Positions 13,307-63,480 of a stretch of 64,000 bases of DNA are shown piece by piece (positions within the stretch are counted from its first letter, which is position 1; each line of letters starts with the position of its first letter). The translations under genes were made by a program, and so were the position numbers. A model generated the notes under the pieces. That model saw only the letters and a list, made by a program, of their open reading frames with translations, ran no database searches and was not told the DNA's origin. Source of the stretch: a phage; the sequence record PV419677.1; one strand, 5' to 3'.

Positions 13307-13635
13307 CTCTTTTTCATTTTAATCTTATCAATTTCATCTTGTATTTGCATTGTAACACACTTTTCTACATGCACTGCAAGCTCCGCTTTGCGGTCTTCAG
13401 AAGGGGTGCCGAAATCAACTGAAACTTTTCCCGATGGTTCAATTTTAATTCCGGTTACGTACACAATGTGATTGGACCCATCAGGGAGTGATAACAGAAT
13501 TTCCTGCCGTACAGTTCCCATGGATTGCCGGATAATCTCCAAACTTTTTTCGTAGTAAGGTACAGAAGGAGCCTTAGCTCCCTCCGCATCTTTCTCGAAA
13601 TTATCTAAATCAGATAAATCGATATCATTCATCAA
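13291..13635 (-). CDS. hypothetical protein at the gene 40 position
   Basis: 114 aa between uvsX and 41; called by position only. Confidence 0.4.
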   Translation of the reverse strand: MMNDIDLSDLDNFEKDAEGAKAPSVPYYEKSLEIIRQSMGTVRQEILLSLPDGSNHIVYVTGIKIEPSGKVSVDFGTPSEDRKAELAVHVEKCVTMQIQDEIDKIKMKKRWWKW

Positions 13636-14803
13636 GGTCTTCCATCATATCTAAATCGTTTTCGATATCTGCCGCAGATGGTTTTGCCTTACCTTCGGGA
13701 GCAGAGTATTTTTCAACCTTGGAGGCAATAAGCGCATCAACCTCGGCGTCAACAACAGCATTGCTATCGATTGCACCCAGCTGGTAATGTCGTTTGATTG
13801 CATCACGGAAAGGTTCGTGCTTGAACAACGGACCCCAGAATTCGGTACAGTTAGTATCTTTTGCACGCCATGATTTTTCTTCGCGGACCATTTCACCGGT
13901 CTCAACATCAAGATATTCACGGTTATACCAACCAACTTTCGGTTTCACCACAAATCCGATTTCCATTGCCATATCAAGCAGGCCAGAATACGGGTCAATA
14001 CCCCCATCGAATTTTACATCAATGAAGAATTTACTTTTCTCTTTGACCATACGAGATTTTTCGGCGTTCAGAACAAATTGGAAACCTTCAAGTTCTTTAC
14101 CGGTTTCTTTAATCTGGCGTTTGCCGATAATGAATACGGTGTCCGCAGAATACATAACACCTGTACCACCGGTCATAACGGTTTTGCTGTACATCTCAAT
14201 CGTCTCGATTGTATGGTTAACCGCGACACAAGGAATATCCTTGATACTAAAATATGGGGTAACAATACGGAACAGAGATTTCAGGGATTTAGCACGAGTC
14301 ATATCACCAACGACTTTTTCGTTCATCGCATCTTCTGTTTCTTTTTTCGACGCCATGTTACCGATTGAGTCAATAAAGATAATGACTTTTTCACCGCGCT
14401 CAATTGCTTCAAGCTGGTTAACCATATCAACTTTCAATTGTTCAACCGACTGGATTGGTGTGTGGATAACACGCTCCGGGTCTACTTTCATTGCACGCAG
14501 ATAGGCCTCTGTGATACCAAATTCTGAATCGTAGAACAAACAGATTGCGTCGGGGTATTTGTTCATATATGCAGAGACCATCGTTAAACCCATATTGGAT
14601 TTAAAGTGTTTTGACGGACCAGCAAAAATAGTCAAACCTGACTGCATACCACCATCTAGTGCACCGCTGATTGCAATGTTCAGCATCGGGATTTTTGTAC
14701 GAACTACATCTTTATCATTAAAGAACTTGGACTTGGTAAGAGTCGCGGTCATTTTGGATGTAGAAGCTTTAATCAAACGGGATTTCAAATCTGCAATAGA
14801 CAT
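13625..14803 (-). CDS. uvsX: UvsX recombinase (RecA-like)
   Basis: 392 aa; near-colinear with remembered T4 UvsX (KSRLIKASTSK, GPSKxFKSN). Confidence 0.9.
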   Translation of the reverse strand: MSIADLKSRLIKASTSKMTATLTKSKFFNDKDVVRTKIPMLNIAISGALDGGMQSGLTIFAGPSKHFKSNMGLTMVSAYMNKYPDAICLFYDSEFGITEAYLRAMKVDPERVIHTPIQSVEQLKVDMVNQLEAIERGEKVIIFIDSIGNMASKKETEDAMNEKVVGDMTRAKSLKSLFRIVTPYFSIKDIPCVAVNHTIETIEMYSKTVMTGGTGVMYSADTVFIIGKRQIKETGKELEGFQFVLNAEKSRMVKEKSKFFIDVKFDGGIDPYSGLLDMAMEIGFVVKPKVGWYNREYLDVETGEMVREEKSWRAKDTNCTEFWGPLFKHEPFRDAIKRHYQLGAIDSNAVVDAEVDALIASKVEKYSAPEGKAKPSAADIENDLDMMEDLDE

Positions 14804-14888
14804 TCATTTTTTCCATAGGCACCATTATATTTTTCTCACAGGTTTAAGATAGGATAATTATATCACTGTATTTTTAGAGCAATTAATG

Positions 14889-15419
14889 TTAGTTAATACC
14901 TTGGCGTGCTTTCTCTTTAGCTACACATTTATTAATATAGCTCAGACGGTTTTGAGCAGAACGCTGATACATATCACGATACTCATTAGCTTTTGGAGAA
15001 CCAGCCTCTGCTGCCTGATAAGCTTCCGCGCGCATGATGTTTATCTGCATATTGATGTATGACATGCAGACCTGTGAAATCTGGTTAACAGTATCCAGGT
15101 CATTTTGGCGCTTGGTTTCTGCTTCCAGTTTAGCAATGATTTCGTCATGCTTCGCAGCTTGTTCGCGTTTGTACTCAATTTCACGTTGAGCATATTTCGC
15201 GCAGTTATTTCCACATTGATTGTTGTCGCGTTTGTAGATAAGTCCAGTACCACCTTTGAAATCAAAGGAACCATTATGCACCTGACGGTCTGCAGCAATT
15301 CGCGCTTTACCAATCTCATTGGCATTAACAACATCGCCCTGGTAAGCACAACCAGATAGCAGCATAACAGCTGCGATAGCTAACTTTTTCATTGTATTTT
15401 CCTCAATTAAAACATTCAT
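14889..15419 (-). CDS. putative lipoprotein
   Basis: 176 aa; signal peptide ending LSGC; occupies the slot where T4 carries beta-gt and 42. Confidence 0.5.
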   Translation of the reverse strand: MNVLIEENTMKKLAIAAVMLLSGCAYQGDVVNANEIGKARIAADRQVHNGSFDFKGGTGLIYKRDNNQCGNNCAKYAQREIEYKREQAAKHDEIIAKLEAETKRQNDLDTVNQISQVCMSYINMQINIMRAEAYQAAEAGSPKANEYRDMYQRSAQNRLSYINKCVAKEKARQGIN

Positions 15420-15542
15420 AGCGGGCTTGGAGTCCCAAAAATATCCAACCCAAAATTAAAGTTGGAGTCATATGTGGAGTCATTATTGCCCAATAGATTG
15501 ACATACTAAAAAATGCAATCAGTACAATAATTGTAATTATCT

Positions 15543-15785
15543 TCATTTGGTTTCCTTGATGATAATTACATGTGCATTTGATTTACGCTCAGCAACGAGT
15601 GCCCAGATAAATGCAATAAACCATCCGACCATTGTCCAACCTAACAGGAGGTTAACAAAGAAGATTCCGCAATTACTTTTGGTTCCTCGCAGTAGCGCGA
15701 TAATCCACGGCAGAAAATATGCCAGTGCAGCCAGGAAGAAAGAACCAGCACCAAGAACAACAGTACCTGCAATTAATGTTTCCAT
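15543..15785 (-). CDS. imm: superinfection immunity protein Imm-like
   Basis: 80 aa two-TM protein with NLLLGWTxVGW...IWAL motif; position upstream of gene 43. Confidence 0.6.
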   Translation of the reverse strand: METLIAGTVVLGAGSFFLAALAYFLPWIIALLRGTKSNCGIFFVNLLLGWTMVGWFIAFIWALVAERKSNAHVIIIKETK

Positions 15786-15857: not shown

Positions 15858-17267
15858 TTAAAAATCAAACATATCAAAAAGAGATGCTTTTTTCTCGTAA
15901 TCAACCTTAGCTGCTTCAGAGAACCCTGTTAACGGTTTGACAAAAGTCTTCTGGAACAGTGTGTTGTAGTCCATCCACTGCAAGACTTGGTCACGGATTT
16001 CAATCGGGAGTTCAATCCCAGATGGCCATGCAATCACGGTTTCACCAAACGGGTTGCCGACTTTAAGAGGAAGTACATACACCTTTTCCCCTTCCATGAT
16101 TTGTGGAACAGTCTTCAGACCTTTAGTTGCACGCATATATGCAAGCACACCTTTGATATGAGCCGGGCACTTAAATCCAGGGAAACCACCCTCATTATAT
16201 TTCTGAATGTTGTTAACCGATGATACACCTGCGATGGTCATGTAGTTAAGCTCATTAAATTCCTTATTGAATTCCTTGAAGTATGTCTGCAGAGATTCTT
16301 CACCTTCTTGCAGCATGCGACGGATACATTCTTTCAGAGCTTTCTGACATGCTTTTGGTGTGCTCGACTTTTGAGTTTCCAGACCCATGATTTTCAGTTT
16401 CGGAACAGCATATCGTGTGCCTTCCATATCGTACACATTCAGAGCATAACGCTTCTTCGCTGTCCAGAATCCACCAACACCTTTAGAACCAAGCGGAGGA
16501 CATGCAATCGCTTCACGGTCCATAAACATAAGGTGCTGTTTGTTGTTCATGTATTCAGCCAGTTCACGGAAAGCTTTATCGATTGCCGGTTCCAGACGGT
16601 CTTTCGCAAACTTGTCCATGAAGTCAACCAGGTGGTTTGTATCGCGGAATTTCGATTCGCCACCAACCTTTTTAATCAGGTTATCGCACTGGATATAAAT
16701 GGAGTCAGTATCGCCATAGAATACATATGTTTCACCACTTGTACCACAAACACTATCAAAATATTCGTTAACTTTACGCTCAATCCACTGCAATGCAAGT
16801 TGTCCGAAAGATGTAATCGCGGTTGCATTTCGCAGGTCAAAGTAACGGAACCAGATATTTCCCACAATTTTGTTCAGTTGAAGTCGTTAATTTCAACCCG
16901 GAATTATATCCAGCTGCATGTTGCCATGCAGAGCAGACTATATCATCATCTTTCGATGCCATGCGCTTCCAGCCACTTGGCTGTACTCCTTTCGGATAGT
17001 CGTTGCACGTTCCTATAATAGGCTTCGCTCAGGATTGTCTCATAGAGATGTCCCCTGAATTCACATGGTTTAAAGTGCGCCGGAATACTTGGTTAACGCA
17101 CCATAACAACTGTTGATAAGCAATTTGCGGTTAATCTGTGCAGTATTTGCCGCAATTTCTGCCATTTGCGAATTATGCAAATGACTTTCCAAATCCGCCC
17201 TTGATAATGTTTTTAAATATGCAATTTGCGAATCATCAAAATCTATATTATAATCAATATTCATCAT
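15858..17267 (-). CDS. 43: DNA polymerase C-terminal subunit gp43B, two exons: join(15858..16864, 17096..17267) if the intron is spliced
   Basis: exon 1 encodes motif B KLLINSCYGAL, exon 2 encodes GNIWFRY... and motif C YGDTDS; both in the same frame, separated by 231 nt with stops. Confidence 0.75.
16865..17095 (-). other. putative ORF-less group I intron in gene 43
   Basis: exon ends in U pairing with G of an internal GCGCAC guide; R-like CAACGACUAU and S-like GAUAUAGUC can form P7; GNRA hairpin CUGCAUG-GCAA-CAUGCAG; last nucleotide G. Confidence 0.6.
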
Positions 17268-18082
17268 TTATTCCTACAGTTATCAAAATGCCAACGTTTC
17301 ATGCCTGCTAATATACCTTCTTTTCCACAATGTGGACAAACTGCTTTAACCTCTTTTGCTTGTTTCCAATATTCCTTTCTGGCATCAGAAATAGCTTGAT
17401 TGTGTTCATCTGAATTTTTGTGTCCCAATCTGGTTTTAACGATATCTGGATTTTTAGCAACACGTTCTTTCATAAACTCAGATTTCGCTGCACGCATTTC
17501 TGGTGTCCAGGCATCGGAGCATTTTTGTTTGTGGTCGTCGGATATAGTTCCATTTTTCAGCACAGACTCATTGTTCTTATAATGTTCAATTAAACTTTGT
17601 GAACGTTTTTGACAAGTTTCTACCGAGTGTTTTGTTCCAGTATTTTTAATTGAGGCGATTTTAAAATTATCAATTGAAATTTTATTGTAATAATCTGGAT
17701 TTTGGGCCCGGGTATATTTGATACTATCGGAAACCTTTTTGGCAACTACTGGATTATGCATCGCATTTGGTAAATTTAAAGAATTGACATAATCCCACCC
17801 ACCTTTACCACCTGGGGTTAAATTATATGTGTCAGTACGTGTGATAAATTCATTATCAACTAATTTGGCTTCAAGTGCATATGCATCATCTTCGTTATCA
17901 AATTCAGCAATGATTGATTTGACCAGGTTATGCTTGCCATATTTTTCTTTCGCAGCTTTCACAATGGGACCCGAACCCAGATAATCATCCAACAAATTAT
18001 AAGATTCACATTTATGAACTCCAATGTAAATCTTATCGTTCACTAAATTTTTAATTTGATAAACAGTGTATACATTTTTCAT
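17264..18082 (-). CDS. GIY-YIG homing endonuclease (seg-like) inserted in gene 43
   Basis: 272 aa; N-terminal VYQIKNLVNDKIYIG, NLTPGGKGG; C-terminal zinc finger CPHCGKEGILAGMKRWHFDNC; own SD AAGGAG. Confidence 0.7.
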   Translation of the reverse strand: MKNVYTVYQIKNLVNDKIYIGVHKCESYNLLDDYLGSGPIVKAAKEKYGKHNLVKSIIAEFDNEDDAYALEAKLVDNEFITRTDTYNLTPGGKGGWDYVNSLNLPNAMHNPVVAKKVSDSIKYTRAQNPDYYNKISIDNFKIASIKNTGTKHSVETCQKRSQSLIEHYKNNESVLKNGTISDDHKQKCSDAWTPEMRAAKSEFMKERVAKNPDIVKTRLGHKNSDEHNQAISDARKEYWKQAKEVKAVCPHCGKEGILAGMKRWHFDNCRNK

Positions 18083-18104
18083 AATGTCTCCTTAATTTAA
18101 AAAT

Positions 18105-18138
18105 ATTTTAGCGCGCTTCCTTGCGCTTGTACAACTTA
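18105..18138 (-). promoter_or_regulatory. promoter-like element upstream of the gene-43 HEG
   Basis: TTGTACAA -35, 18-nt spacer, TAAAAT -10. Confidence 0.35.
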
Positions 18139-19659
18139 AAGATGGTTTAAAAGGTCTTTAATCAATTCACTATTACGTTGTGCCGCCAACATCTTTTTCT
18201 TTTCGGTTTTTCGTTGATTAAAAACTTTCTCAACTTCTGTCGGAATAATACCTGCAACATCTTTAAAATACATCATGCCATTTGGAGCACAACTAAATGT
18301 ATCAGATGGACGGTCAGCAGTTCCTGCGATGTATTCATACATCGGCGCAGGAGCAAATGAACCGGCAATCGTTTCTGGACTGATGTTAATCTGTCGGATG
18401 ATGCTCGGATACAGAGATGTCAAGTCACAGCTCATAACGTATTTGTATGCGTTCGGAATCGGTTCCTTAACAAATGCACCAGGGAATGATTGACGAACAT
18501 GCGATTTGGTTTCCGGAATGACTTTGTTTTGAGTCTTCAGGCTGTTAAAGATAATCGCATCCCAAGTTTTGATTGGGCTGAATACAGACTGAATCTGCAT
18601 TTTTGCGTAATAACCCATTGACTGGCTAAGGTTAATAAACTGGCGCTTACGGTCAATCTGTACAACACGATAAACATCGATGATGTTATAAGAAATATAC
18701 CGTTGGTGATTTGATTCACGCAGTTTAGAAATCGGACCATCATACGGGAGTTTACCAACACCCAGCTCAGATTCCGCAACATAATCCAACGAATAAGACG
18801 GTTGGTTTGTGAAGCTGAACTTTTTATACAGGTCCAGATAATCCAGAACAGAGATACCCAGAATCTGAATGATTTCTTGTTCTTCACCAAAGCCGTTGTT
18901 AATTACTTTAACTTTTGTACGACGATGTGGGCTCAGACGTTTTGCTGTGGCTTCACCAAATACATTTTTAAGGCGGTTGTAGATATACGGAATATCAAAC
19001 TTCTCGATGTTCCAACCAGTTAACATAACCGGAGTTTTCTCGTTCCAGAATACCAAATACTGCTGGAGCATTTCTTCTTCTGAATCGAAAGCCATATAAA
19101 CAATTTTTTCCAGGATTTCTTCAGGGACTTCATCGCCGCCATCTTCTTGCAGCTTGGCAGCAATATCAATAGACCATTGCTCCACAGTGGCGTATGGTGA
19201 GCTCAAAAGGTCAAAGACATAGAATTTATCGTCTACCGAATCATAGTGCGTCAGGGCATCAATAGGGTGACGTGCTTCAGACGGCTCAGGGAACCCATCC
19301 GGAGATGTCACCTCGATATCGAAGTTAGCCACACGGATTTTACTTGAATCGTATTTGATTTCGTGTGGATAACGGTCGGACAAGTATGCGAGTTTAAAGT
19401 CATCCATACCCATAGCTTCGAGACCCATGTCATTCATTCGCTTCATCCACTGGGATGCATCACGCATGGAATCGAATTCTTTTTTCACACAACCTTTATT
19501 ATAGATGTCTGTATACTTTGCAGCCTGGTCTTCGCGAGCATGCATAAACAAGCATGGAGCATAAGGGATTTCACGAACACGTTCATGACCATTCTTGTCA
19601 ATGTATCGTTCAAGCAGATTGTCACCGATTTGTTCGATAGTTAAATAAAATTCTTGCAT
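18136..19659 (-). CDS. 43: DNA polymerase N-terminal subunit gp43A (N-terminal and 3'-5' exonuclease region)
   Basis: 507 aa; N-terminus MQEFYLTIEQIGDNLLERYID matches remembered T4 gp43; ends in-frame with stop before the HEG. Confidence 0.9.
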   Translation of the reverse strand: MQEFYLTIEQIGDNLLERYIDKNGHERVREIPYAPCLFMHAREDQAAKYTDIYNKGCVKKEFDSMRDASQWMKRMNDMGLEAMGMDDFKLAYLSDRYPHEIKYDSSKIRVANFDIEVTSPDGFPEPSEARHPIDALTHYDSVDDKFYVFDLLSSPYATVEQWSIDIAAKLQEDGGDEVPEEILEKIVYMAFDSEEEMLQQYLVFWNEKTPVMLTGWNIEKFDIPYIYNRLKNVFGEATAKRLSPHRRTKVKVINNGFGEEQEIIQILGISVLDYLDLYKKFSFTNQPSYSLDYVAESELGVGKLPYDGPISKLRESNHQRYISYNIIDVYRVVQIDRKRQFINLSQSMGYYAKMQIQSVFSPIKTWDAIIFNSLKTQNKVIPETKSHVRQSFPGAFVKEPIPNAYKYVMSCDLTSLYPSIIRQINISPETIAGSFAPAPMYEYIAGTADRPSDTFSCAPNGMMYFKDVAGIIPTEVEKVFNQRKTEKKKMLAAQRNSELIKDLLNHL

Positions 19660-49562: not shown

Positions 49563-50101
49563 TGCATTCCTATCACAAAGAACAGAGGACGTGTGGTTTG
49601 ATTGGTTTCTTCACATGATGCACGACAACAATGTTGCACTACCTTTATATGAGCATCATAAATCTTATCCATATCAGGCGTTTTAACAGGCTCATCAATT
49701 ATATACAGAACCCGTGAAAGTGATAATCCACGGAATTTGCATGCAGTGTTACCAATAAAACTACGAACAGAATCAGTGTACAAACGGTACTTAATACTTT
49801 CTGTATGGTTATTAAAATATTCCTTTCGGATTGCAGTAGCCGAAACATTAGCATACGCGGCGCAATTAGACAAAATAATTACAGTCCCACCACCTGCGAG
49901 CCAATCAGACGCAAAAATGGATACTGCCCTTGTTTTACCAGATTGGCGTCCACCATCAAGTTTTAGGGTGCAGTATTCTTTAAACAGGGTTTGTGAATCG
50001 GGTACATAAAACCCACTATTACAAATGTGTTCTACTCTAGCATCAGAATGGTTTGCAAAAGCATTCATCAGGGATAGATAACTACCGGTTAAAAATTTCA
50101 T
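49559..50101 (-). CDS. small P-loop NTPase
   Basis: 180 aa; Walker A GGRQSGKT, Walker B-like LYIIDEP. Confidence 0.45.
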   Translation of the reverse strand: MKFLTGSYLSLMNAFANHSDARVEHICNSGFYVPDSQTLFKEYCTLKLDGGRQSGKTRAVSIFASDWLAGGGTVIILSNCAAYANVSATAIRKEYFNNHTESIKYRLYTDSVRSFIGNTACKFRGLSLSRVLYIIDEPVKTPDMDKIYDAHIKVVQHCCRASCEETNQTTRPLFFVIGMQ

Positions 50102-50244
50102 AGTTGTCTCTTAGTTGTGGGGCCGTTCCTTGGCGCATCATTCATCCCTTCCTGCATTTACCCATTACCGCACTCGGGCTCGACCTTATTACAGGTTGGC
50201 GGGAGTCCCTCAGGATTGAGGTCCAGGTTGCTCCCATTTAATTA

Positions 50245-50508
50245 TTACGCTTTACCGCCAGAAACAATACCAAAGGTATCAAAATCCCATTCAATATTGT
50301 CAACATCAACTTTCTTACCAGCAACCACGAATGCGATTTCGCGGCGTTTTGCATAGGTAACAATTTCTTTACCATCGCCGCCAAAGAAAGAATAACCATT
50401 GCGCTTCATGGTGCCAAAGTCTTCAGCATCACCAGCGAAGGCGCGGACTTTAAAAGCACCGGTAGGAGCTTTAGCAGATTCAGTAATAAATTCTTGATAA
50501 GTTTTCAT
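50245..50508 (-). CDS. internal protein (IPII-like) with capsid targeting sequence
   Basis: start trimmed to ATG 50506-50508; MKTYQEFITE CTS; GDAEDF...KRNGYSF shared with 61805-62104. Confidence 0.6.
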   Translation of the reverse strand: MKTYQEFITESAKAPTGAFKVRAFAGDAEDFGTMKRNGYSFFGGDGKEIVTYAKRREIAFVVAGKKVDVDNIEWDFDTFGIVSGGKA

Positions 50509-50556
50509 TTTATATTCCATTGTTTGGTTGATAAAATCATTATACAACCTTTTTAG

Positions 50557-50973
50557 TTAAGCGTACACAGCTTTCCCATAGTATTTGTACCAGGTAGGCT
50601 TTTGAGAAATTTTCTCATTCAGTCTGGCTTGACTGATTTCAATTGACCAGATTGATGGTTGATAATCATTTTTCCATTCATCAGGAATATCACTTAAATC
50701 TTGGGTAGAAATATCTTTTATGTTAAACCCTCGCTTTAAACATTCTGCAATAAGTTCTTGATGACGGTTTTTAAGGAACAAAAGTTTATCATAAAAGAAG
50801 GTAACATGACCAGTCCCTAAAAGAAAAGATGATGGAATTTTAAAGTCAGAAACCTTTTTACCATTTTGCACATGCTTACGAACAGCGCCAAAAACGCGAG
50901 GAAGTTCACGATATTCAGCCATAAGATGTTGGTCAGCAAGTTCAGATACCAGGGTTAAATTAATGCGAGTCAT
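50557..50973 (-). CDS. denV: endonuclease V (pyrimidine dimer DNA glycosylase) DenV
   Basis: 138 aa; [34 protein letters not shown] matches remembered T4 DenV. Confidence 0.9.
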
Positions 50974-61413: not shown

Positions 61414-61470
61414 TTTATTCTCCTCAGTAGTTGATGGGATAATTATAATGCAGTTATCCCATCACGTACA

Positions 61471-61749
61471 CTAAATTTTTGTATATTGTCCAGCTTTAAC
61501 TTTTTTCAGTTCACGAGGGCTTACCGCATAAGTGAATGGAGCATTCCAGGAAGAACTGACTTTGTAACCTTTAGTCAACATCATTGCTGAAACTTTCTTG
61601 TTATCAGGACCGTTTTCGCCTTTAACAAGAAACAACTCAAATGCGCCACCATCAACCGGTTTGGCCTTAACCATCAGATGTCCTTTCAGGTCTTCCAGCA
61701 TGTCCGGGTGACTAATTGATTCGTTAATAAATTCTTGATAAGTTTTCAT
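61471..61749 (-). CDS. internal protein (IPI-like) with capsid targeting sequence
   Basis: 92 aa; N-terminal MKTYQEFINE; early promoter/leader motif upstream. Confidence 0.6.
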   Translation of the reverse strand: MKTYQEFINESISHPDMLEDLKGHLMVKAKPVDGGAFELFLVKGENGPDNKKVSAMMLTKGYKVSSSWNAPFTYAVSPRELKKVKAGQYTKI

Positions 61750-61804
61750 TAGTAGCTCCAGTAGTTGATGGGATAATTATACTGCAACTATCCCATCACG
61801 TACA

Positions 61805-62104
61805 TTACATTTTTGAACCACGAATTACGCCATAAGCGGCGAAGTCGTCAGTGATATTTTTAGGAGTGTTTTTACCCGTTTCAATGAAAGCAATGCTTGA
61901 TTTCTGACTAAAAGAGGTAATTTTGTTATAGTTAGAGTCAAGGAAGGTATAACCATTTTTACGCAGCTGGTCAAAGTCTTCAGCATCGCCTTTACCTTTG
62001 AAGTCAACCCATTTGTAGGTGTTTTTCTTCTGAAGGCCCAGAGGCCAGGTTTTTGCTTCCGCCAGGTAATTGTTTTCTACCAAAAATTCATGGAGCGTTT
62101 GCAT
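61805..62104 (-). CDS. internal protein-like (CTS variant)
   Basis: 99 aa; MQTLHEFLVEN; GDAEDF...RKNGYTF shared with 50245-50508. Confidence 0.55.
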   Translation of the reverse strand: MQTLHEFLVENNYLAEAKTWPLGLQKKNTYKWVDFKGKGDAEDFDQLRKNGYTFLDSNYNKITSFSQKSSIAFIETGKNTPKNITDDFAAYGVIRGSKM

Positions 62105-62112
62105 TTGAAATC

Positions 62113-62385
62113 CTATTTTAGATAAATTGCGTATTTTTTATAACCAGCTGTCTCATGACGGAGACCCTTGTCATTGGCAAAACGCTCAATGTTATTAATT
62201 TGGTTCTGGTCAAGTTCTGAAATGTCAAACGCGAAAAAGTTGCGTTTGTTGCCAATTGTTATATGGTCAGTTAAGTCAATGCTATACAGGTGATTGATAT
62301 TGTCAATCATAGCTTTGACTGCTTTACTAATTTTTACTTCTTCATTCAGTTGTGACTCGTTGAAAAATTCATTGAAAGTTTTCAT
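62113..62385 (-). CDS. internal protein-like (CTS)
   Basis: 90 aa; MKTFNEFFNES. Confidence 0.55.
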   Translation of the reverse strand: MKTFNEFFNESQLNEEVKISKAVKAMIDNINHLYSIDLTDHITIGNKRNFFAFDISELDQNQINNIERFANDKGLRHETAGYKKYAIYLK

Positions 62386-62393
62386 AAGAAACC

Positions 62394-62726
62394 TTATTTA
62401 TAAAGTTTTGCCAGTTCTTTACGTCCGCGAGCAGACATAATAAATTGTTCATCGCCAATTTTAAAATAAGCCATACCGCCGTCAACAGCGATACCAATTT
62501 CTTTAGTACCTTCTTTGCCTTTCCACTTGCCACCAGATTTCAGGACAGCTTCAACTGCAGCTTTGGAATATTTGGACGTTTGAAAACGTTCATTACCAAT
62601 CTGAAAGAAAACACCATCTGCATTTTTGGTTAAACCAAATTTCAGAGAGCCTTCACTATCATCAATTGATTTGGTCTCATTGATGGCGGATTCGGCTAAA
62701 AACTCGTTGTAAGTTTTGATGTTCAT
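62394..62726 (-). CDS. internal protein-like (CTS)
   Basis: start trimmed to ATG 62724-62726 (GGAG SD); MNIKTYNEFLAES. Confidence 0.55.
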   Translation of the reverse strand: MNIKTYNEFLAESAINETKSIDDSEGSLKFGLTKNADGVFFQIGNERFQTSKYSKAAVEAVLKSGGKWKGKEGTKEIGIAVDGGMAYFKIGDEQFIMSARGRKELAKLYK

Positions 62727-62789
62727 ATTAACTCCATTGTTCATTCGTTGGTGTAGGAACATAATACTGCACCTACACTTATTTGTACA

Positions 62790-63480
<691 letters not shown>

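Follow-up and report, generated by a model that had tools for sequence, protein, structure and literature searches.

Five genes of a phage of the genus Gaprivervirus, here called A to E, are likely to be that genus's T4-type internal-protein cassettes, whose products would be injected with the DNA as inhibitors of host defence. They lie on the minus strand of a 64,000-nt stretch of sequence record PV419677.1 (the window, in what follows), which is assigned to Gaprivervirus (Straboviridae, Tevenvirinae), in the VR7/VR20/SP18 group. The locus is the known polymorphic internal-protein (IP) locus, at which the genus holds four cassettes in the ipI slot and one in the denV slot. The idea that internal proteins bearing a capsid targeting sequence (CTS) act against host defences is established and not new. 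What is new lies in the detail: two proteins, A (an ORFan) and D (with a predicted PC4/Whirly-like fold), can now be recognised as probable leader-bearing internal proteins, homologues of Ip9 exist without a leader, and a leader-mediated recombination junction is apparent at E.

Leaders, cleavage sites and genomic location

The five open reading frames (ORFs) are listed below, a slash marking the predicted cleavage point and pI denoting the isoelectric point.

61471-61749, minus strand: gene A, 92 aa, leader MKTYQEFINE/S, mature part 82 aa, pI 9.6
61805-62104, minus strand: gene B, 99 aa, leader MQTLHEFLVE/N, mature part ~89 aa, pI 9.3
62113-62385, minus strand: gene C (Ip9), 90 aa, leader MKTFNEFFNE/S, mature part ~75-80 aa, pI 6.8
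62394-62726, minus strand: gene D, 110 aa, leader MNIKTYNEFLAE/S, mature part ~98 aa, pI 9.3
50245-50508, minus strand: gene E, 87 aa, leader MKTYQEFITE/S, mature part 77 aa, pI 8.0

A first-pass annotation of this DNA had reported four tandem genes by their N-termini and a fifth copy at 50245-50508. All four are found at exactly the coordinates it gave, on the minus strand, and the fifth is confirmed as gene E, also on the minus strand and beginning MKTYQEFITE. The likeness that it saw to the targeting sequences of T4 IPI, IPII and IPIII is equally well founded. IPII and IPIII begin MKTYQEFIAE, and IPI begins MKTFKEF...ITE; a CTS resembling MKTYQEFIAE is present in all five genes, and the relaxed motif [KQR]T[YFL]xEF, sought in the six-frame translation of the window, has five matches, every one of them at the N-terminus of A, B, C, D or E, compared with a mean of 0.28 (maximum 4) in 50 shuffles. 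For D, the start at 62726 is favoured over a longer ORF from 62762, because a GGAG sequence lies 6-9 nt upstream, all homologues begin M-KTY, and the upstream ATG overlaps the -10 hexamer of the promoter-like element.

Each of the five also carries a gp21-type [LI]xE prohead-protease site within residues 10-17, the position at which it is found in T4 IPI, IPII and IPIII. The sites at residues 10-12 read INE/S in A, LVE/N in B, LAE/S in D and ITE/S in E, and gene C has FNE/S at residue 10 with a canonical LNE/E at residue 15. In alignments of 12 D-family and 17 Ip9-family sequences, the leader residues and the P1 Glu are invariant and the region just past the leader is variable. The leader DNA of B is only 63% identical to that of the others and its peptide pattern is nevertheless retained, which implies selection on the peptide and not on the DNA alone. 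The mature parts are small (8-11 kDa), Cys-free and lysine-rich, with pI values of 6.8-9.6, like those of the T4 internal proteins.

The genomic setting points the same way. Across the IP locus the window matches Shigella phage fPSFA at 100% identity, and VR20, VR7, SP18 and other phages of Gaprivervirus at 94-97%. The gene order is 1 - 57A - 57B - [D C B A] - trna.4 - trna.3 - tRNA-Met/Arg; the order in T4 is the same, with the bracketed slot between 57B and trna.4 filled by the single gene ipI. Gene E lies downstream of denV and adjoins denV and e, which mark the second IP locus of T4 (ipII/ipIII), the order being e-denV-E in the window compared with e-ipIII-ipII-denV in T4. All five genes are thus located where ip genes are found, at 57B-trna.4 or at e/denV. 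The cluster had been described as expanded, which is true relative to T4, with one gene at the slot and three in total, while nine CTS genes in total are carried by the sister phage VR20: it has an extra cassette, ip6, next to A, and at its denV locus ip7, ip10 and ip5 besides E. VR20, ~95% identical across the IP locus, also encodes the protease gp21, the core scaffold gp22, gp67 and gp68, the proteins by which the targeting signal is read; their genes fall outside the window.

Mature parts and their families

Once the leaders are taken off, B and E are the only related pair (38% identity, E-value 5e-14 by BLASTP), and no BLASTP match below an E-value of 0.1 was obtained between leaderless A-E and mature T4 IPI, IPII or IPIII. 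The mature parts of A-E, B and E excepted, are unrelated modules joined to a common leader. The first-pass description of the genes as divergent paralogues does not stand, since homology beyond the leader of 10-12 residues is limited to B and E, and C and D are predicted to fold differently; neither fold agrees with the published description of IPI*, two β-sheets flanked by terminal helices (PMC3012670). Family assignments follow the same divisions: A falls in PHROG 15565, B and E in 2667, C in 7673 and D in 3966, and the T4 internal proteins in 4363, 7857 and 5341. PHROG 2667 also includes Ip7, and PHROG 3966 also includes Ip10; homology of B with Ip7 and of D with Ip10 was considered and is not claimed despite this co-membership, the pairwise BLAST matches being confined to the leader. 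Searches of PDB chains with the sequences of A, B and E and with profiles for C and D gave nothing significant. Records with at least 95% identity number 34 for D, 34 for C, 21 for B, 19 for E and 18 for A.

Gene A is found in 18 phage records, all Gaprivervirus and 97.8-100% identical, all of which label it 'hypothetical', and the function label of its PHROG is 'unknown'. A word-indexed search of 5.8 billion proteins returned a single cluster. An exhaustive HMMER search for remote homologues, covering 1.84 billion representatives, gave three matches, to repeat proteins of 1200-2900 aa, which we judge to be spurious because a 24-residue stretch was matched many times over. Gene A is, as far as these searches reach, an ORFan confined to Gaprivervirus; it has never been annotated as an internal protein and lies outside the named Ip families.

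B and E both match PHROG 2667, 'internal head protein', with E-values of 2.9e-20 (194 matching phage records) and 8.6e-21 (208 matching phage records), respectively. In GenBank B is labelled 'hypothetical' in most records and 'internal head protein' in RefSeq entries. From the match between their mature parts, B and E are evidently paralogues. The B family also supplies the one experimental hint of packaging. Morganella phage MP1 has a 96-aa homologue, gp136, which starts MKTFQEFINE and is encoded beside MP1 57B, and this protein was identified in virions by electrospray ionisation tandem mass spectrometry, with 6 peptides and 59% coverage (PMC5384007). The identification of A-E as IP genes in the first-pass annotation is thus backed by the leader motif, by synteny, by the [LI]xE sites, by the 'internal head protein' labels that PHROG and GenBank give to B, C and E, and by the presence of the MP1 homologue in virions.

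Gene C has a named counterpart. It is 79-80% identical to Ip9 of RB15/RB32 over 100% of its length (79% to Ip9 of RB15) and matches PHROG 7673 at 1.7e-56; it is Ip9, one of the proteins named in the 1994 work cited below. The predicted model of C (predicted local distance difference test, pLDDT, 78) is a small α-β-β-α-β-β sandwich, whose structural matches are heterogeneous, and no functional inference is therefore drawn from it. The Ip9 domain is also found without a leader. A 73-aa stand-alone ORF of the siphovirus Kagunavirus BCH953P1 (L008 1507-1728) begins at the equivalent of C residue 19, with 47% identity (E-value 4e-23), and in Kuttervirus aagejoakim_85 (Ackermannviridae; L009 1-1740) the domain forms the C-terminus of a 755-aa protein (hhalign probability 96%), which has no CTS and adjoins structural genes. 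These homologues, in which the mature Ip9 domain stands leaderless, indicate that the leader was joined to modules with an existence of their own. A separate observation concerns the 'ip7 protein' of Escherichia phage OLB35 (P0030, 77 aa): its C-terminal ~35 residues are 80% identical to Ip9, its N-terminal half is unrelated and it has no CTS. It looks like a chimera that arose inside the ip locus.

D is found in 56 records of T4-like phages of many Enterobacterales, always with the leader present; in Salmonella phage STP4-a the D homologue occupies the ipIII slot. Its GenBank label is 'hypothetical protein', save for one record that has 'profilin'. The sequence contains an internal duplication (residues 25-63 against 72-110, E-value 2e-5), and the predicted model (pLDDT 76.7) is correspondingly a 2x(β-β-β-β-α) arrangement, a type I PC4-like domain that resembles Whirly proteins. 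An independent BFVD model of the homologue from PEi26 superposes on the D model with template modelling (TM) scores of 0.77-0.79. No sequence-level match was found between the D profile and the solved structures of PC4-like/Whirly members. We predict that D has a PC4/Whirly-like fold, on a model of moderate confidence.

Cassette borders and recombination

Promoter/stem-loop elements linked to gene shuffling in T4-like phages, and explicitly to the ip locus, have been described by Krisch and colleagues under the name PeSL (PMC4122927). PeSL-like elements are present here at the following positions.

62751-62790, minus strand: element upstream of D, GTGTAC-N18-TATTAT, with a stem GTGTAGG/CCTACAC around the -10 hexamer
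61761-61805, minus strand: element upstream of A, (A/G)TGTAC-N18-TATAAT, with a stem GATGGGATA/TATCCCATC; the upstream repeat copy
61427-61471, minus strand: second copy of that element, downstream of A and upstream of trna.4
50526-50568, minus strand: element upstream of E, GTGTAC-N18-TATAAT, with a stem GGTTG/CAACC; identical upstream of VR20 ip10

Gene A is flanked by 46-nt direct repeats that are identical at 43 of 46 positions (93%) and have the form GTGTAC GTGATGGGATA..TATAAT TATCCCATC AACTACTG; each copy resembles an early-type promoter, with its -10 hexamer in the loop of a stem. When one mismatch is allowed, the pattern GTGTAC-N18-TATWAT has 16 matches in the window, every one on the minus strand, compared with an expectation of 0.66, and it is presumably the early-promoter consensus of the phage. 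The same architecture precedes ip6, A, ip7 and trna.4 in VR20, genes 052 and 053 in phage P8, and ipI and trna.4 in T4. B and C, which follow D at spacings of 8 nt in an operon-like arrangement, have no element of their own. The combination that defines a PeSL, an early sigma-70-like promoter with a stem-loop at the border of a variable ORF, is found on both sides of A, at D and at E.

Comparison between relatives shows where cassettes have been exchanged. In phage P8, three different cassettes replace A and B, and insertions and deletions among relatives fall at the PeSL-like elements. Gene E is composite: in the 75 nt upstream and in the leader DNA it is VR20 ip10, but in the mature part it is another VR20 gene, the one that stands between ip7 and ip10, downstream of ip10. 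Among the five genes the leader DNA is 63-93% identical, and the 60 nt that follow it are 18-38% identical. The highest value is that for A and E (93%), and among several cassettes in relatives the leader DNA is identical. By this layout, A-E are cassettes bounded by repeated PeSL-like elements, and the leader-coding DNA has, to judge from E, itself served as a recombination site. Repeats and leader-coding DNA together would provide the recombination points at which cassettes are added, removed or swapped between related phages.

Several features of the surroundings may be recorded here. Gene 57B (62790-63245, minus strand) is Acb1, a cyclic-nucleotide phosphodiesterase that acts against the cyclic oligonucleotide-based antiphage signalling system (anti-CBASS; Pfam PF23474, 1.2e-59), and it lies directly upstream of the IP cassettes; known and candidate counter-defence genes thus stand side by side. 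Between E and a Vs.8-like gene, at 50100-50240, there is a GC-rich non-coding stretch of ~140 nt in a genome that is otherwise AT-rich. It shows 81% conservation in VR20 and no match in Rfam, and it is not predicted to fold better than shuffles do (z +1.1). Elsewhere in the window, gene 43 (DNA polymerase; 15858-19659, minus strand) is split into an N-terminal part (18136-19659) and a C-terminal part (15858-16865), separated by a group I intron (Rfam RF00028, 81 bits, core 16914-17127) containing a GIY-YIG homing-endonuclease ORF (17264-18082). The insert is missing from most Gaprivervirus relatives, and a related intron is annotated in phage vB_EcoM_G2285.

Function and comparison with known systems

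What could the products of A-E do? The internal proteins of T-even phages have been described as a diverse counter-defence set with the CTS alone in common (PMC3012670, as it cites Repoila 1994), and polymorphic CTS-bearing IPs have been known since that work (Repoila 1994, EMBO J 13:4181, as cited in PMC3012670, PMC4122927 and PMC12373910). In T4, Ip1, Ip2 and Ip3 each inhibit a distinct GmrSD type IV enzyme, with no cross-protection (Silas 2025, PMC12373910). If A-E behave like their T4 counterparts, the N-terminal CTS of 10-12 residues would take each product into the scaffolding core of the prohead, where gp21 would cleave at the terminal [LI]xE, just past its Glu. The mature, lysine-rich, Cys-free proteins would then remain with the packaged DNA and be injected along with it. 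By analogy with Ip1-3, their most likely role would be that of host-strain-specific, first-response inhibitors of DNA-targeting defences. It is reasonable, on this analogy, to treat A-E as candidate injected anti-defence effectors, as the first-pass annotation had proposed.

The DNA of this lineage differs from that of T4 in a way that bears on the targets. The window contains no homologue of T4 gp42, b-gt or a-gt, though the syntenic flanks uvsX, imm, 47 and 55 are present. Gaprivervirus is reported to have no hydroxymethylase or glucosyltransferases while retaining dCTPase, denA, denB and alc, and the presence of an unknown DNA base has been suggested (PMC8056088, PMC12115623). Between uvsX and imm, where T4 has b-gt and gene 42 (dCMP hydroxymethylase), the window has one 176-aa ORF (interval 13625-15785). 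This ORF (14889-15419, minus strand) was considered as a replacement for gene 42 and rejected, having a lipoprotein-like N-terminus, MKKLAIAAVMLLSGC, and no Pfam domain. Since the targets of the T4 internal proteins recognise DNA carrying glucosylated hydroxymethylcytosine (hmC), the genes for which are missing here, the targets of A-E may differ; the glucosyl-hmC-dependent enzyme blocked by IPI would be no obvious target in this lineage.

A number of points weigh against the view that A-E encode injected defence inhibitors. Packaging, cleavage and injection of A-E are carried over from T4. In a lineage that has neither gene 42 nor a-gt nor b-gt, the known class of IP targets may not apply, and ten other ip genes gave no inhibition when set against five further GmrSD systems (PMC12373910). 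The MP1 virion preparation contained non-structural proteins too (PMC5384007). Among the leaders, that of B (MQTLHEFLVE) is the least canonical and most diverged, that of D has two additional N-terminal residues, and C has Phe in place of Leu or Ile at P3 of the usual site. The promoter-like elements upstream of the genes are moreover of early type. The candidate for a late promoter, TATAAATA at 62395-62402, overlaps the D stop codon 9 nt from the ATG of C; it was rejected because the sequence occurs in the window at chance frequency (5 matches, 5.1 expected) and because it lies too near the start codon of C. However, an element of the same kind lies upstream of T4 ipI, a gene with a packaged product, so that an early element is no evidence against packaging.

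The alternative that survives best, though we consider it unlikely, is that the packaged proteins are mainly structural or physical in their action, neutralising charge and organising the DNA in the head or during ejection. Their lysine-rich, neutral to basic mature parts are consistent with this, as are the ~1000 IP molecules embedded in the DNA of the T4 head, with IP lysines touching DNA phosphates (PMC3012670), and the fold predicted at moderate confidence for D, which is that of sequence-unspecific single-stranded nucleic-acid binders (PMC7549692). Yet all three T4 internal proteins have specific GmrSD targets (PMC12373910), and IPIII, which is required on ECOR17, restores infection of that strain in trans even without its CTS (PMC9391042). 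Cassette content also varies between near-identical phages, a pattern that host-specific adaptation fits better than a generic need, and the mature parts are unrelated in both sequence and fold.

A considerably smaller chance attaches to the possibility that the shared N-terminus is simply the passenger of a mobile regulatory cassette, made up of promoter, stem-loop, ribosome-binding site and first codons, with no targeting role, the products being early cytoplasmic accessory proteins. The early-type elements that directly precede A, D and E, the near-identity or identity of leader DNA between some cassettes, and the use of that DNA as a recombination junction would all be expected if this were so. 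B and C, however, have no element and a leader nucleotide identity of 63-77%, yet keep both the xT[YFL]xEF[ILF]xE peptide and the protease site, whereas at trna.4 the element is present without a CTS. The element is also found ahead of T4 ipI, which encodes a packaged and injected protein (PMC3012670), and a member of the B family was detected in virions (PMC5384007). That one or more of the ORFs, A especially, is a decaying or non-functional remnant is very improbable: A has no homologue outside one genus and is present in 18 of the ~34 related records in which D and C occur (at least 95% identity), but its reading frame is intact, it is preceded by a promoter-like element of its own and a good ribosome-binding site (GGAG), is 97.8-100% conserved in 18 records from several countries and hosts, and has a fully canonical leader and cleavage site.

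Injected defence inhibitors thus remain the preferred reading of A-E, and a bolder extension of it can be offered, which we hold to be improbable as a whole. Gaprivervirus has no gene 42 or glucosyltransferase and yet carries dCTPase, denA, denB and alc; its internal proteins could for this reason be directed at other defences, or at type IV enzymes specific for a base modification yet to be identified. D might then be an injected PC4/Whirly-like binder of single-stranded nucleic acid that acts on DNA or RNA, not an inhibitor that binds an enzyme, and A a genus-specific effector without relatives.

Injected internal proteins encounter host immunity before any other phage product. Dozens of Ip families have no known target, and a correct catalogue of them is raw material for the discovery of new inhibitor-defence pairs. 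The recognition of A and D, the predicted fold of D and the presence of many internal proteins in a lineage without hmC-glucosylation point to proteins whose targets possibly lie outside the GmrSD theme. The principle is established and will not surprise a T4 specialist.

How do these genes compare with systems already described? For D only, a likeness is seen to the PC4-like, Whirly, PUR and MRP1-MRP2 single-stranded nucleic-acid-binding domains (PMC7549692), in the predicted fold and the internal duplication. D differs from these in having no sequence similarity to them, its model is of moderate confidence, and that model also matches SsgA-like and OspE-type proteins, neither of which binds nucleic acids.

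With T4 IPI, IPII and IPIII, the five genes share the leader, the [LI]xE site, the two genomic loci, the size, the charge and the lack of Cys, and with ipI a similar promoter/stem-loop element upstream. They differ in that their mature parts have no sequence similarity to those of T4 and belong to other PHROGs, and in that their lineage is without the hmC-glucosylation genes that form the substrate of the known targets. With the polymorphic T-even ip locus (Ip4-Ip13; Repoila 1994, as cited in later papers) they share the locus itself, and C is Ip9. They differ from it in that A belongs to no named Ip family and that B and Ip7, like D and Ip10, have only the leader in common.

Finally, the PeSL cassettes of T4-like phages (Arbiol 2010, PMC2839356; Comeau 2014, PMC4122927) resemble the arrangement found here in their promoter/stem-loop units bordering variable genes. 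The likeness extends to the direct repeats around a single ORF, gene A, and to the coincidence of the elements with insertions and deletions among relatives. There are differences, however, in the placing of the stem, which here encloses the -10 hexamer and in phage PST lies upstream of the promoter (PMC4122927), and in the leader-coding DNA, which here appears to act as a second recombination site.

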